From the NCBI GenBank assembly GCA_038250445.1, contig JBBSCI010000003.1:1-40306 (forward strand): a stretch of 40,306 nucleotides of DNA, in the 5' to 3' direction. Source of the DNA: Candidatus Limnocylindrales bacterium (GTDB taxonomy: Bacteria > Chloroflexota > Limnocylindria > Limnocylindrales > CSP1-4). Below are positions 12,570-19,857 of the stretch, one piece after another (position 1 is the stretch's first letter; each line of letters begins with the position of its first letter). The notes beneath the pieces were generated by a model that was given only the letters and a program-made list of their open reading frames with translations, ran no database searches and was not told the origin of the DNA. The position numbers were made by a program, and so were the translations under genes.

Positions 12570-13826
12570 ATGGGTGCCTCCGTCACGCTAACCGCCCCAT
12601 CCATCGGCGTCGTGCCCGGCGGCGAAGCGACACTCGAGCTTCGCCTCAGGAACACCGGCACGGTCGTCGACGAGTTCTCCTTCAGCATCCTTGGCGACGC
12701 GGCCGGCTGGGCCTCCGTCGAACCGCCGACGATCTCGCTCTTCCCAGGCGCCGAGGAGACGGCACGGATCACCTTCCGGCCGCCGCGCAGCCCGCAGGTT
12801 CCGGCCGGCCCGATGCCGTTCGGGCTGCACGCGCGATCGAAGGAGGACGCCGCCGGTTCGACGGTCGAGGAGGGCGTCGTCGACGTCGGCCCGTTCCTCG
12901 AACCCTTCGCCGAACTCATCCCGCGAACCTCCCGTGGAAGCCGGTCGGCCGGTCATGACATCGCGGTCGACAACCGCGGCAACATCCGGCTCAACGCGGA
13001 AGTCGAGGCCGCGGACGCCGACCGGCTCCTCGGCTTCGACGTCAAGCCGCCGGGCCTGGTCGTCGAGCCGGGCATGGCGGGCTTCGCCAAGGTCCGGGTC
13101 AAGCCGACGAAGCTCTTCTGGCGTGGCACTCCGCAAACCCGACCGTTCCAGGTGGTCGTCCGTCCCGAGGGTGGGTCGGCCGTGACGCTCGACGGAGCGC
13201 TGCTCCAGGAAGCGATTCTGCCGCCGTGGTTCATGCGCGCGCTGCTCGCCCTGCTGGCCCTTCTGATCCTGCTGATCGTCCTCTGGCTCGGCCTCCTCAA
13301 ACCGTCCATCGAGTCGGCTGCATCGGATGCGGTCGCGTCACCGCTGGCCGATCTTCGCGACGACGTGAATTCGGCCCTAGACGACGCCGGCCTGCCGACG
13401 ATGGCCCCGGCAGGCGCCGGCGACGAGAGCCCCAGCCCGGGCCCGAGCGTCACCGCGGCGCCCGGTGAATCGGTGCCGCCGGTCACTCCGTCACCCTCAC
13501 CAGCGGGACCGCTCATTCCGGGCCTCGGGAACCCGATCGACGGTCGGCTGATCCAGGCCGAGCCGACGTTCACCCCAACCGGAATCCTGTTCGTCACCGA
13601 CCTCGTGTTCTCGAACCCGAACGGGCGTGAGGGCGCGGTCGTGCTCCTCCGCGACGGCAAGCCCCTGATCGACCTGAAACTCGAGAACTTCCGCGACCTT
13701 GACTTCCACTTCGTCACGCCGATCGTCGTCCTCGCCGATCACAACCTCAGCATGTCGCTCACCTGCACCGAGCCGGGTGTCTCGTGCAACCCCGCGATCC
13801 TCTACTCCGGGTACCTGCGGCCATAG
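12570..13826 (+). CDS. Bitopic membrane protein with two N-terminal Ig-like (COG1470-like) domains; resembles the 'hydrolytic protein' annotated in actinobacterial CIS loci
   Basis: 'VVPGGEATLELRLRNTGTVVDEF...W..VEPPTISLFPG' and 'VDNRGN'; TM helix 'WFMRALLALLALLILLIVLWLGLL'; Pro-rich linker; C-terminal 'VTDLVFSNP...LENFRDLDFHFVTP' domain. Confidence 0.75.
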   Translation: MGASVTLTAPSIGVVPGGEATLELRLRNTGTVVDEFSFSILGDAAGWASVEPPTISLFPGAEETARITFRPPRSPQVPAGPMPFGLHARSKEDAAGSTVEEGVVDVGPFLEPFAELIPRTSRGSRSAGHDIAVDNRGNIRLNAEVEAADADRLLGFDVKPPGLVVEPGMAGFAKVRVKPTKLFWRGTPQTRPFQVVVRPEGGSAVTLDGALLQEAILPPWFMRALLALLALLILLIVLWLGLLKPSIESAASDAVASPLADLRDDVNSALDDAGLPTMAPAGAGDESPSPGPSVTAAPGESVPPVTPSPSPAGPLIPGLGNPIDGRLIQAEPTFTPTGILFVTDLVFSNPNGREGAVVLLRDGKPLIDLKLENFRDLDFHFVTPIVVLADHNLSMSLTCTEPGVSCNPAILYSGYLRP

Positions 13827-13828
13827 GC

Positions 13829-17083: not shown

Positions 17084-17977
17084 GTGAGCGCGATCGGCGC
17101 CTGGCTCGCCAAGTTCTTCGCCGCGACCGGTGGTGCCCCGGTGGCCGGTGCGTTGGTCGTCGCCGGCGTCGTCGTGGGCAGCCTGCTCGGGGCCGGAGCC
17201 GGTGGGGTGTTCAATCAGAATGCGCCGATCCCCGGCGCCCTCCAGATCTATCCGTGCCCGAAGGACGGTCCGGCGCTCACCCAGGTCCCGCCCGGCCAGG
17301 AGATGCTCGTGACGGGGCGGAGCGCCGACGGCGCCTGGCTGCGGATCCACTTCCCGAGCCCGGGTCGGAACGAGGCGTGGGTGTCCGCAGCCGCGATCCG
17401 CCTCGTCAAATCGATCGACACCCTGCCGGTCGCCGACTGTCAGCCGGAGGTAGCCCAGCTGATCCAGGGCTCGCCCGGGGCGACGCTCACGATCGTCGGA
17501 AGCTTCGAGCCGACGCCATCGCCAACCCCGTCCCCGACGCCTCCCCCGACGCCCAAGCCGACGCCAAAGCCAACACCGCGCCCGACTCCGCGGCCAACGC
17601 CTCGCCCAACGCCTCGGCCGACGCCGGTCGACACGACCCCACCGACGGTCGCAAACCTGACGCCGACTCCGGCAAAGATCACGACGGACCAGGCTTGTGC
17701 CATCAAGGAAACGGCTACGGTCGTCACGGTCACGGCGAGTGACCCGGAATCCAGGGTCGCATCAGTCCTCCTCACCTGGACCAACGCAGCGACCGGCAGC
17801 TCCGCAGCAAGGGCAATGAAGAAGAACGCCGCTGGGCAGTGGGAGGCCACGATTGACGCCATCAAGGACAAGCTGTCCCCGCCGACGTCGTTCTATTCAA
17901 TCTCGGCCGTGGCAACGAACTTCGCGAAGCTGAAGTCGAAGCCCGCGGCGGCCAGATTCCTGGTCACATGTCAATGA
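17084..17977 (+). CDS. Membrane-anchored SH3-like domain protein with Pro-Thr linker and C-terminal Ig-like domain
   Basis: GTG 17084 with GAGGGAG RBS; N-terminal hydrophobic anchor; 'VPPGQEMLVTGRSADGAWLRIHF....EAWVSA' SH3-like; (PTPK/PTPR)n; 'DTTPPTV...VTVTASDPES.VASVLL.W'. Confidence 0.7.
   Translation: MSAIGAWLAKFFAATGGAPVAGALVVAGVVVGSLLGAGAGGVFNQNAPIPGALQIYPCPKDGPALTQVPPGQEMLVTGRSADGAWLRIHFPSPGRNEAWVSAAAIRLVKSIDTLPVADCQPEVAQLIQGSPGATLTIVGSFEPTPSPTPSPTPPPTPKPTPKPTPRPTPRPTPRPTPRPTPVDTTPPTVANLTPTPAKITTDQACAIKETATVVTVTASDPESRVASVLLTWTNAATGSSAARAMKKNAAGQWEATIDAIKDKLSPPTSFYSISAVATNFAKLKSKPAAARFLVTCQ
17510..17628 (+). repeat. Degenerate 12-bp coding tandem repeat (PTPS/PTPK/PTPR linker)
   Basis: CCGACGCC(N)4-type units encoding PTPSPTPSPTPPPTPKPTPKPTPRPTPRPTPRPTPRPTPV. 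Confidence 0.8.
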
Positions 17978-19857
17978 CGACCCTCGCCGGCATCCTCCCC
18001 AAGCTCGCCGTCTTCCTCGTCGCGACTCTCGTCGGCGGCATCCTGGCCTTCGGCGTGACCTCCGCGCTCAACCGACCGCGGCTGGCCCCGACCGCCGGCA
18101 TCGCGCCCGACTACACGCTCACCTCGGCAGGAACGGTCGCCGCCTTCGACCTGATCGACGCCCAGAAGACGGCGACGGCCGTTTCGGGCCTGCCGGCCGC
18201 CGACCTGGGCGACGCCTCGGCCGCCCTCATCGACGACGAGCCGCCCGCAGGCACGGCCCCCCTCGGCTTCCCGCGGGTCGATCCGGTCAGCCAGTTCGAC
18301 GGCGGCGAGTTCGCGGGAGCGAACTGCACGCTGGCCGCGGGCGCGATGCTGGCTCGTCTCGGTTTCGGCATCGTCACGAGCGGATCGATCCTTCGGACGC
18401 TCCAGTCGGACCAGGTCGGCGGGACCGACATCCACGACCTGCAGCGCGCCGTCTTCCACGGCTACGGCGTCCAGTTCTCGACGGGATCGTTGACCCCGGG
18501 CCATTTGAGGCACCTCCTCGGCGCCGGCTACGGAGCAGTGATCCAGGGCGTGTACGGCCAGATCCCCGAGCAGCTGCGCCTCCAGCCGAGCTTCACCGGC
18601 GGCCACGCGATCTATCTCGACGGCTTCTATCCCGGCAACGGCGACATCCCCGCCGCGTACTACGTCATCGACCCGATTGGTCGCGGCAGCTCGTACCGCG
18701 GCGGGTGGTGGCCGGCGTCGATCGTCGACGCCTTCGGCCTTGCCTTCGGGGGCGGCAATCGGATCCCGGCGGCGTGGGTCTTCCCGCCGGGCGGCGCACC
18801 GCCTCCCATCGTCGTACCGCCGAACGTGCCCCCGCTTCCGCCCGACCCGGGCGACGGATCGTCGGCGAGCCCCGGGTCGTCGTCCGGCCCGAGCCCCAGC
18901 GGCGCCGAGGAACCAGGCACGGTTTCGCCGCCGGAGCCGGAACTCCCGGCCACCATCGACCCCGGGACGATCGGCGGGATCGATCTCGTCCCGTTCCTGA
19001 CGGTCTGCATCGTCAATCCGGCCCTGCCCGAATGCCCGAGCGGCGTCGAGGGCGTCTTCGAGCTGGCTCCACCGATCTTCACGCTGTCGCTCGGACCGGC
19101 GATCAACGTCCGATTCGTTGATTCCGACAGACCGAATGTCGCCCTCATCGGATTCACCGTCGCGAGTCCGGCTCCCGTCGATGTGAAGTTCTGGGAGGCC
19201 GATGGCACGCCTGCGACGGTCCTTGGGCCGACGTCGATGGCGAGCAGGACCGTGGGCGGCGACCCGATGATCGTGGCCGAGCTGCATGTCGTTGCCGCCA
19301 CGAAGTATCACTACCAGGTCGTCGCGGGCGATGGGGCGTTTACCTCGGTCAGCCCGGTCGGGACGTTCACGACCGGCTATGGCGTGCAGCTCTTCGAGGC
19401 GGCTCTCGCAACGGCGACGAGCCCGGTGCTTACCCTCGAGTCGGCACTGTCACCGTTCCTCCACCAGGCCGATGGAGCGCTCGCGCCTCCGCTCCTCCCG
19501 TTGATCGGCGGTGAACGGCCGGCCGCATGCAGCGGCCGCATCCTCGGCTTCGGCACCGAGTCCTACTGCCTCGCGGACATCGGGGCTGTCCAAGCGACGT
19601 GCAACACGGTGAACGTGAGCTATGACCTCGAGGGGGTCGGCGGGAGCGGCGTCCTGATCCGTGCCTTCCCGACGATCACCGGAGCGTCCAGGGACGGATC
19701 GCCGACGCTGACCGGCATCCTCGAGGCCGGCGGACCGCCGGGCTCAGGCGAGGTCGCGATCGGCTGCGTGGCCTCCGGACTGACCTACTCGATCGTCATC
19801 GACGCGCTCGGTGACGCGGACGGCATTCTCGCCGCCCAGACAGTCGTTGTGCCGTAG
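17974..19857 (+). CDS. Membrane-anchored papain-fold (C39-like) cysteine peptidase with C-terminal beta-sandwich domains
   Basis: ATGA overlap at 17974; N-terminal TM; Q...NCTLAAGAM (Gln/Cys), GGHAIYLDG (His), YYVIDP (Asp); Pro-rich linker; Fn3-like 'TKYHYQVVA'. Confidence 0.7.
   Translation: MTTLAGILPKLAVFLVATLVGGILAFGVTSALNRPRLAPTAGIAPDYTLTSAGTVAAFDLIDAQKTATAVSGLPAADLGDASAALIDDEPPAGTAPLGFPRVDPVSQFDGGEFAGANCTLAAGAMLARLGFGIVTSGSILRTLQSDQVGGTDIHDLQRAVFHGYGVQFSTGSLTPGHLRHLLGAGYGAVIQGVYGQIPEQLRLQPSFTGGHAIYLDGFYPGNGDIPAAYYVIDPIGRGSSYRGGWWPASIVDAFGLAFGGGNRIPAAWVFPPGGAPPPIVVPPNVPPLPPDPGDGSSASPGSSSGPSPSGAEEPGTVSPPEPELPATIDPGTIGGIDLVPFLTVCIVNPALPECPSGVEGVFELAPPIFTLSLGPAINVRFVDSDRPNVALIGFTVASPAPVDVKFWEADGTPATVLGPTSMASRTVGGDPMIVAELHVVAATKYHYQVVAGDGAFTSVSPVGTFTTGYGVQLFEAALATATSPVLTLESALSPFLHQADGALAPPLLPLIGGERPAACSGRILGFGTESYCLADIGAVQATCNTVNVSYDLEGVGGSGVLIRAFPTITGASRDGSPTLTGILEAGGPPGSGEVAIGCVASGLTYSIVIDALGDADGILAAQTVVVP

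Follow-up and report, generated by a model that had tools for sequence, protein, structure and literature searches.

How a contractile injection system (CIS) of class IId makes contact with the membrane, and what triggers it, is an open question, and to date a requirement has been demonstrated for CisA alone. A locus in a Candidatus Limnocylindrales bacterium poses this question again, with five genes for envelope proteins standing beside a CIS regulator gene. These genes, here called g1 to g5, occupy positions 12570-19857 of a stretch of 40,306 nucleotides (the window), which is the entire contig C3 (JBBSCI010000003.1) of an assembly (GCA_038250445.1) that is 80% complete, with 260 contigs and 69% G+C. 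A first-pass annotation had proposed that they form a docking and sensing apparatus of an undescribed kind. The reading favored here, with a probability of about 0.6, is that the five genes are an enlarged membrane/envelope accessory operon serving a cytoplasmic CIS of the Streptomyces type (class IId).

Five envelope genes that accompany the CIS

Gene boundaries were set by third-position GC and inspection of start codons, which gave the following genes:

12570-13826, + strand: g1, 418 amino acids
13829-15976, + strand: g2, 715 amino acids
15982-17004, + strand: g3, 340 amino acids
17084-17977, + strand: g4, 297 amino acids, with a GAGGGAG ribosome-binding site upstream
17968-19857, + strand: g5, 629 amino acids

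The spacing is tight, with gaps of 2, 5 and 79 nucleotides followed by a 10-nucleotide overlap of g4 and g5, and a Kyte-Doolittle scan finds exactly one strong hydrophobic segment in each protein. The five are genuine genes with membrane-anchored or secreted products. Gene calls and hydropathy scan agree with the initial description of co-oriented, tightly packed genes, each with a transmembrane (TM) or signal segment.

Evidence for a tie to the CIS includes the distribution of the genes across genomes. An even set of 201 genomes from the class contains 16 with a sheath at least 72% identical and 185 others; the counts are descriptive, with no statistical test, because related genomes are not independent. 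Matches to g1 at E <= 1e-100 occur in 15 of the 16 sheath-positive genomes, g2 matches reaching past residue 690 in 14, g3 matches that include the C-terminal domain in 12, and g4 (E <= 7e-27) and g5 (E <= 4e-53) matches in 14 each. Not one of these occurs among the 185 others. The propeller part of g2 alone is matched in 20 other genomes, including G112, and weak ribbon-only matches to g3 are common. Genomes flagged as unpublished stand among the negatives (G087, G091, G096, G112, G123, G151 and G159) and none among the positives. The CIS is patchy inside genera (1/12 in genus g4, a label of the sample unrelated to the gene names, and also 2/6 and 5/7), and the module tracks it. Even in genus g3, where the g4-g5 pair lies 75-95 kb from g1, the two genes are still paired and still in CIS-positive genomes.

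Gene order was followed in 66 loci found through g1, by tblastn of their flanks. In these, g2 adjoins g1 in 58 of the 60 loci having at least 2.5 kb downstream, and luxR is divergent from g1 within 700 nucleotides in 53 of 62. The order and strand of g1 to g5 are kept in 38 of the 50 loci with enough downstream DNA, which puts the five-gene arrangement far beyond chance. Of 52 loci, 39 have core CIS genes in their 10 kb of upstream flank; among the other 13, 10 were examined, and in every one of these 10 the contig also carries an orthologous sheath, at a distance of 13-45 kb. Distant loci are reshuffled (g1-g5-g4-g2, g5-g1-g4-g2) or do without g3-g5. Across a phylum sample of 301 genomes, a g1 profile matches 32, of which 31 have a sheath match, usually 10-16 kb off, against 29 of the 269 g1-negative genomes (G470, flagged as unpublished, among them). 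Co-occurrence of the five families with sheath genes, strong for g2, g4 and g5 alike, and the conserved place beside the CIS regulator support the original assignment of the module to the CIS locus.

Three tandem g1-family genes are found 12-17 kb from the sheath in two genomes of other Chloroflexota families (G456:C158:16498-21183 and G421:C7:6573-13212), a trio that recalls the sco4256-58 triplet discussed below.

Domain architecture of the products

The architectures first assigned to g1 (two immunoglobulin-like (Ig) domains, TM segment, outer domain), g2 (secreted beta-propeller), g3 (double zinc ribbon, TM segment, glycan-binding domain) and g5 (C39-like peptidase) are borne out by the matches and models described here, and that of g4 is borne out in part.

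The N terminus of the g1 protein consists of two PapD/ASH-like Ig domains (Pfam Cep192_D3; structural model) that are predicted to be cytoplasmic. The first, residues 1-110, is modeled with confidence (pLDDT about 90) and the second, 113-212, with less. The hydrophobic segment at 225-243 falls within a model helix at 219-273, after which a disordered Pro/Ser linker leads to a confident C-terminal beta-sandwich (315-418) with two Cys residues that are invariant in alignment A1. Fold matches include FimC/PapD pilus chaperones (Foldseek), HYDIN and CEP192, with the YadV chaperone at Z 11.2 (root-mean-square deviation (rmsd) 2.7, 100 residues aligned) and a HYDIN PapD-like domain at Z 11.0 (rmsd 2.5, 103 aligned). 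The C-terminal domain (312-418) stays unplaced: its language-model neighbors, at 0.88, offer no more than a lead, and whole-model fold searches are filled by the N-terminal Ig. A complex prediction of g1 residues 1-216 with Baseplate_J (Cis11), both given as alignments, scored 0.00, below the mark, and bears neither way on docking.

The g2 protein starts with a Sec-type signal at residues 7-28 followed by ASA, and its propeller is of the PD40 (TolB-like) family (Pfam, 51.6 bits). Ig domains resembling ASH and choice-of-anchor-D follow the propeller.

Two zinc ribbons form the N terminus of the g3 protein, with Pfam matches to DZR (44.5 bits) and Zn_Ribbon_1 (39.9 bits), and the first ribbon bears the signature CxxCG-x(9-10)-FCGxCGxFLEW. 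The hydrophobic segment at residues 132-150 has Arg/Lys residues and the zinc ribbons on its N side, which predicts a single-pass protein with its N terminus inside. A Pro/Thr linker then leads to a C-terminal glycan-binding domain of the NADase-type discoidin family, NF047619, at 85.8 bits against an NCBIfam cut-off of 38. In its own genome the strict ribbon signature occurs only twice, in g3 and in a ribbon-propeller protein on contig C164, both encoded in the CIS island.

The g4 protein has an N-terminal membrane anchor at residues 20-38 (Kyte-Doolittle). It had been described as an SH3-Pro/Thr-Ig protein; the Pro/Thr-rich linker is plain in the sequence, the SH3 part is a weak SH3_3 match of 22.2 bits, below the Pfam cut-off of 27, and the C-terminal Ig domain is putative.

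The g5 protein is anchored by residues 13-31 (Kyte-Doolittle). Residues about 100-275 form a papain-fold (C39-like/PeiR-like) cysteine peptidase domain with a Pro-rich linker after it, and the C-terminal half consists of FN3/Ig-like beta-sandwich domains. Foldseek matches were only of the FN3 type; the peptidase fold surfaced only in a structure search independent of Foldseek. The matches of that search were led by the PeiR pseudomurein endoisopeptidase (8z4h; Z 14.7, rmsd 2.9, 152 aligned) and a Bacillus C39-like peptidase (3erv; Z 14.0, rmsd 3.7, 158 aligned), followed by the C39 domains of ComA (Z 13.2, rmsd 2.6, 134 aligned) and PCAT1 (Z 12.9, rmsd 2.6, 136 aligned) and a double-glycine protease (Z 12.7, rmsd 3.2, 137 aligned). 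Papain-family enzymes rank after these. Language-model neighbors are C39_2/C70 clusters (0.95), although no family in Pfam or NCBIfam matches at E <= 0.01, the curated C39, C39_2 and C70 models included. Q109, C120, H213 and D235 are invariant in all 27 aligned homologs, and in the model a helix at 120-133 begins at C120. By analogy, these residues are presumed to be the catalytic set, with Q109 at the oxyanion position.

Two further observations concern g5 homologs. In G062, a CIS-positive genome, the match is in five pieces (G062:C1:1755064-1756742), two of them with in-frame TGA stops, and looks like a decaying copy. In the class-sample genomes of genus g3 (G164, G182, G038, G005 and G194), g4 and g5 are adjacent to each other and lie at the distance given above or on a contig other than that of g1; the g5 homologs there match the query only up to residue 470 or so, and the last C-terminal domains seem absent.

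Counterparts in actinobacterial CIS loci

Four actinobacterial plasmid CIS loci were compared, from Kitasatospora, S. clavuligerus, Streptomyces sp. NBC_01324 and S. cattleya, three of them annotated. Homologs of g1 occur in all four (E 1e-43 to 3e-60). That of Kitasatospora aligns in two segments at 41% and 38% identity, and that of S. clavuligerus, encoded between the ATPase and sheath genes, at 39% over 254 residues. The NBC_01324 and S. cattleya homologs are 31% and 34% identical over essentially the full length and, as here, are divergent from luxR. Compared with the homolog from a Streptomyces plasmid CIS locus, g1 aligns over its full length at 31% identity (E 3e-47). The PGAP labels of Streptomyces g1 homologs are "hydrolytic protein" and "hydrolase," and "hydrolytic protein" is also the old name of SCO4256 in the tables of PMC2000904 and PMC6593405.

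Likely counterparts of g3 are found at the cisA position. In all three annotated loci the gene after Cis12 encodes zinc ribbons and NF047619 (60-65 bits), and these proteins share with g3 an N-terminal ribbon of the CxxCG...FCGxCGxFLEW type. The first ribbon of g3 matches the NBC_01324 protein at this position with a BLASTP E of 8e-8, and g3 matches the S. cattleya open reading frame (ORF) after Cis12 with a tblastn E of 4e-8. The earlier statement that proteins like g1 and g3 occur in actinobacterial CIS loci is thereby confirmed. A PD40 protein is encoded between luxR and cis16 in two Streptomycetaceae loci, and g4 and g5 find no match in any of the four. The regulator gene luxR shows 44-46% identity with its LuxR counterparts in three Streptomycetaceae plasmid CIS loci and holds the position of SCO4263, a LuxR regulator that controls (activates) the sheath operon of S. 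coelicolor (PMC2000904). A literature search on SCO4264 returned nothing on CIS by title or abstract.

The Streptomyces proteins have published descriptions. CisA is needed for firing, and its topology is N-in, C-out (PMC12237407). In Sco4242, encoded after the wedge genes, a Cys-rich segment that probably binds zinc precedes a TM helix, and the C-terminal domain, about 150 residues long, is carbohydrate-related (PMC10020575). Sco4256, according to the same paper, begins with an N domain like that of pilus chaperones, continues with a TM helix and ends in a third domain that varies; homologs occur in Chloroflexi. A sco4256-58 triple mutant phenocopies a CIS mutant (PMC10066040), and Sco4256-Sco4258 are called CIS effectors or a putative toxin (PMC10066040, PMC10020575). 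The g1 protein was considered as the CisA analog and rejected; the published domain descriptions and the architecture found in the CisA slot point to g3 instead. The proposal of an undescribed system is not supported: g3 has the published CisA (Sco4242) architecture and g1 the published Sco4256-type architecture, both of them protein types already tied to the Streptomyces CIS.

The whole island and its second accessory set

A complete island can be followed in G137, which carries a related locus. It starts with NDH-2, g5, g4, g3, g2, g1 and luxR, and continues through cargo genes, ATPase, cap and sheath to Cis11 and Cis12. Beyond Cis12 lie insertion sequence (IS) elements, a 981-residue ribbon-TM-discoidin protein, a STAND/BTAD regulator and a ribbon-TM-PD40 protein; the far end has an IS110 element and then a second g1-like protein. 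The window's own assembly holds the distal set in the same order on contig C164 (L070):

C164, 1-6896: C-terminal part of the long ribbon-TM-discoidin protein; 1030-residue STAND/BTAD (AfsR-like) regulator; ribbon-TM-PD40 fusion; g1-like Ig-TM protein

In all, the island encodes a pair of Ig-TM proteins, two or more ribbon-discoidin proteins and a single propeller on a ribbon-TM scaffold. This last protein, the C164 paralog, suggests a link of the secreted g2 propeller to g3, because in it the propeller is fused to the ribbon-TM scaffold.

Transposase genes of the IS3 and IS110 types were located in G137 (C1:2331671-2332932 and 2341098-2342348; L073 and L074), one between Cis12 and the long CisA-type gene and one beside the second g1-like gene.

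Regulatory DNA

Three features frame the regulatory DNA of the module and of the CIS operons:

11713-12360, - strand: luxR, LuxR-family (GerE) regulator, divergent from g1
12361-12569: luxR-g1 spacer, regulatory DNA
6123-6241: sheath-cis16 divergent spacer, containing the shared 14-mer GAAAGGGCGAGCCG

The five genes had been said to share the CIS promoter palindrome, but the palindromes of the luxR-g1 and sheath-cis16 spacers differ. An exact, non-palindromic 14-mer, GAAAGGGCGAGCCG, is common to both, at 6163-6176 and as the reverse complement at 12427-12440. It lies 66-79 nucleotides upstream of cis16 and 67-80 nucleotides upstream of luxR, with identical orientation toward both genes; from g1 it is 130-143 nucleotides upstream. 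This placement suits the luxR and cis16 promoters better than that of g1. Copies with up to 3 mismatches are present in 18 of the 54 luxR-g1 spacers and in 11 of 29 spacers between sheath and cis16, often at a different place in the spacer, and the 14-mer is kept only in the closest relatives.

Other elements of the luxR-g1 spacer are conserved across the 54 spacers, namely a CTCAACG-N4-CTCAACG direct repeat (12447-12469) and a TACACT box (12557-12562). Because this box stands 7 nucleotides before the g1 ATG and there is no Shine-Dalgarno sequence, the sequence suggests that the g1 mRNA is leaderless. In a promoter and terminator consensus scan of 11400-20300, terminator-like sites numbered 3 and promoter-like sites 0, which does not exceed the yield of shuffled sequences.

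A further candidate for the shared palindrome, GAACGCNNNGCGTTC, was rejected: it has three copies at 11510-11677 and none near g1 or the sheath promoter, and at up to 2 mismatches its 6 occurrences in the window equal the chance expectation. The region 11505-11680 contains three copies of an element of about 43 nucleotides, each with the hairpin TGAACGCTGGGCGTTC (arms of 6-7 nucleotides, 3-nucleotide loop), which lie in the 250-nucleotide gap between the convergent ends of the annexin and luxR genes. They may act as terminators or as sites for a regulator, or may represent a small repeat element.

The CIS operons and their surroundings

The machine itself is encoded upstream of g1, beyond luxR, in two divergent operons, the second of them assigned by a Pfam scan:

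229-6122, - strand: CIS structural operon, interrupted by the contig end
4530-6122, - strand: sheath
4042-4476, - strand: tube
3603-4034, - strand: conserved ORF
1463-3451, - strand: 662-residue ORF, no family match
974-1453, - strand: second tube
229-1023, - strand: tube+LysM
6242-11461, + strand: second CIS operon
6242-6958, + strand: Pvc16_N cap protein (cis16)
6955-9072, + strand: AAA+ ATPase
about 9075-9911 (approximate start), + strand: eCIS_core (DUF4157) protein
9932-11461, + strand: annexin-repeat protein, 509 amino acids, annexin repeats 91 bits
22829-24211, - strand: zinc-dependent alcohol dehydrogenase, outside the CIS operons, the usual post-g5 neighbor in related loci

Genes for spike, PAAR, gp25, Baseplate_J and P2_I are on contig C202 of the same assembly. 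The annexin-repeat protein is likely a CIS cargo, judging by its gene's position directly 3' of the eCIS_core gene. The cargo slot varies among related loci, G137 for example having a 720-residue PG_binding_1/SleB-like protein there (L072:12666-14828).

On the other side, g5 is followed by genes for NDH-2 and tryptophan 2,3-dioxygenase, both housekeeping enzymes, which in the window separate it from the alcohol dehydrogenase gene. A forward-strand ORF at 22691-23824, matched 3' of g5 in many loci, was considered as a sixth module member and rejected as an antisense shadow of the alcohol dehydrogenase gene. A secreted S8 subtilase of 1966 residues, with four carboxypeptidase-regulatory-like domains and BACON-like and malectin domains, is encoded at 24043-29943. 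Near-identical DNA occurs in soil and sediment habitats.

A working model and its alternatives

As an accessory operon of a cytoplasmic CIS, the module might work as follows. The SCO4263-like LuxR protein would activate the CIS operons and also, by way of the divergent spacer, the g1-g5 operon. The FLEW-type N-terminal ribbon of g3, and that of the CisA-type paralog in the tail-fiber slot, would face the cytoplasm and dock the baseplate at the membrane, while the state of the wall would be read by the glycan-binding domain that g3 exposes on the outside and by the secreted g2 propeller. The g1 protein may be a second membrane-resident partner or a membrane-targeted cargo, as Sco4256-58 have been read. 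Translationally coupled, g4 and g5 would bind and cut wall peptides, so that the wall gives way after the CIS has fired into the membrane of the cell that made it. That cell would then die and lyse in a regulated way, as happens in Streptomyces, and no neighbor would be injected. Docking, sensing and wall cutting are thus putative roles of the module proteins. The first-pass annotation had assigned the tether to g1 and g3 together, which is not supported: in the literature it is the zinc-ribbon protein, of the CisA type, that is connected with the baseplate, and the Ig-TM proteins Sco4256-58 are interpreted as effectors.

Several points weigh against the accessory-operon reading. Two CIS-positive genomes of the class sample, G197 and G167, have no match to g2-g5, and the full five-gene order is missing in 12 of the 50 loci, so that the CIS machine is not strictly dependent on g2-g5. 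Co-occurrence overstates functional coupling, because island genes are gained and lost together and the genomes are related. The SH3 match of g4 falls below its cut-off. The fold by which g5 is suggested to cut the cell wall also serves leader-peptide processing and other chemistries. With a longer paralog in the cisA slot, g3 may be redundant or act otherwise. Finally, the list of Sco4256 homologs in Supplementary Data 4 of PMC10020575 gives for S. cattleya a protein about 240 accession numbers from the CIS regulator (E 5e-4) and leaves the luxR-adjacent g1 homolog unnamed, so that the g1 family may be related to Sco4256 only distantly.

The fold of g5 also bears on an unlikely reading in which it is a processing protease that clips the outer parts of g1, g3 or g2, or secreted cargo, and so licenses firing or matures these proteins in the manner of C39 enzymes. 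The g5 fold is about equally near to the leader-cleaving C39 group (ComA, PCAT1 and the double-glycine protease; Z 12.7-13.2) and to PeiR (Z 14.7), g1, g3 and g4 have long Pro/Ser/Thr linkers exposed outside the membrane, and g4 and g5 remain paired even away from the island; however, g5 lacks an ABC-transporter fusion, and its top single fold match is a wall isopeptidase. A more general doubt is that the operon, or at least g2, g4 and g5, serves ordinary envelope maintenance and is an island passenger functionally unconnected with the CIS. Envelope proteins commonly contain PD40, SH3 and papain-like peptidase domains, and such a passenger would suit the CIS of G197 and G167, the distant g4-g5 pair of genus g3 and the failure of g4 and g5 to match in the actinobacterial loci. 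It is nonetheless very unlikely, given that strong g2, g4 and g5 matches are absent from the 185 CIS-negative genomes of the class sample, close relatives of the positives among them, that PD40 proteins recur within Streptomycetaceae CIS loci, and that a paralog fuses the propeller to a CIS-type ribbon scaffold.

The remaining alternative reverses the direction of firing. In the form first proposed, g1 and g3 would fix the CIS to the membrane, g2, g4 and g5 would open the wall, and the machine would fire out through this opening to inject neighbors in the manner of a type VI secretion system (T6SS). Such a machine would call for two anchored proteins that face the cytoplasm and for a peptidase directed at the wall, likely cargo genes (eCIS_core, then the annexin-repeat protein) are present at the locus, and Vladimirov et al. 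argue that a membrane-bound Streptomyces particle is long enough to span the envelope (PMC10020575). Nothing here shows such an injector, and it is highly improbable. Characterized class IId particles, from Streptomyces and Roseiflexus, were seen free in the cytoplasm, with contraction linked to death of the producer, and no release or intercellular killing is described in the available portions of these papers (PMC10066040, PMC12237407, PMC12998442). Moreover, no envelope-spanning channel is evident in the sequence, and a scan of the window and two further contigs for the T6SS membrane-complex (TssJ/L/M) and baseplate (TssK/E/F/G) families matched 0 of the 30 window ORFs. Both sets of ribbon, propeller and Ig-TM proteins might instead make up a complete trans-envelope apparatus that keeps the machine at the membrane and either fires it outward through the wall opened locally by g4 and g5 or uses its outer domains as a wall-damage checkpoint that licenses firing. 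This is a quite unlikely extension, which if true would mean a cell-anchored injector in a single-membrane bacterium built from parts unrelated to the T6SS.

What the accessory-operon reading offers is a set of parts for the question posed at the outset. CisA-type proteins (ribbon, TM, discoidin) and Ig-TM proteins are common to Actinomycetota and Limnocylindria-type Chloroflexota, and they can occur as two sets flanking the island. To these the lineage adds three extracytoplasmic proteins, a propeller, an SH3-like protein and a papain-fold peptidase, that track the presence and absence of the CIS. The luxR-adjacent Ig-TM and PD40 genes, which Streptomycetaceae also have, are candidates for sensing and wall breaching in CIS-mediated death that can be tested by knock-out. 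In the literature, a study of hot-spring Chloroflexota notes no close cisA homolog in Roseiflexus (PMC12998442), and searches found no paper joining Limnocylindr- names with contractile injection and, among the papers listed, none linking a C39-like peptidase to a cytoplasmic CIS.

Comparison with known systems

What the module has in common with the T6SS complex TssJLM is no more than the broad concept of anchoring a contractile machine to the membrane of the cell that makes it. The present CIS belongs to the eCIS/cytoplasmic class and has genes for a Pvc16 cap, an AAA ATPase and an eCIS_core protein. With peptidases of the PeiR/3erv type, g5 shares the fold of residues 100-275 and the Gln/Cys/His/Asp set. 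It differs from them in its N-terminal TM anchor and FN3-like domains, and the likeness is one of fold, not of sequence family.

Sco4256-58, compared by description only, resemble g1 in the PapD-fold N domain, the single TM segment and the separate C-terminal domain, and also in that the g1 family is confined to class IId CIS loci, often in several copies. Unlike Sco4256, g1 has two Ig domains and its own C-terminal beta-sandwich in place of a ricin or lectin domain, and it pairs with luxR rather than occupying the gap between the ATPase and sheath genes.

The closest parallel is that of g3 with CisA (Sco4242). The two differ in position, g3 being part of the luxR-side accessory operon about 10 kb from the sheath, on its far side, and not 3' of the wedge genes, where the post-Cis12 slot is held by the longer ribbon-discoidin paralog (981 residues in G137, partial on C164). 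They differ also in size, g3 having two ribbons and about 130 cytoplasmic residues to the roughly 285 of CisA. In architecture they are alike, each with a Cys-rich zinc segment, one TM segment and an outer domain of about 135-150 residues, as the published description of Sco4242 has it.

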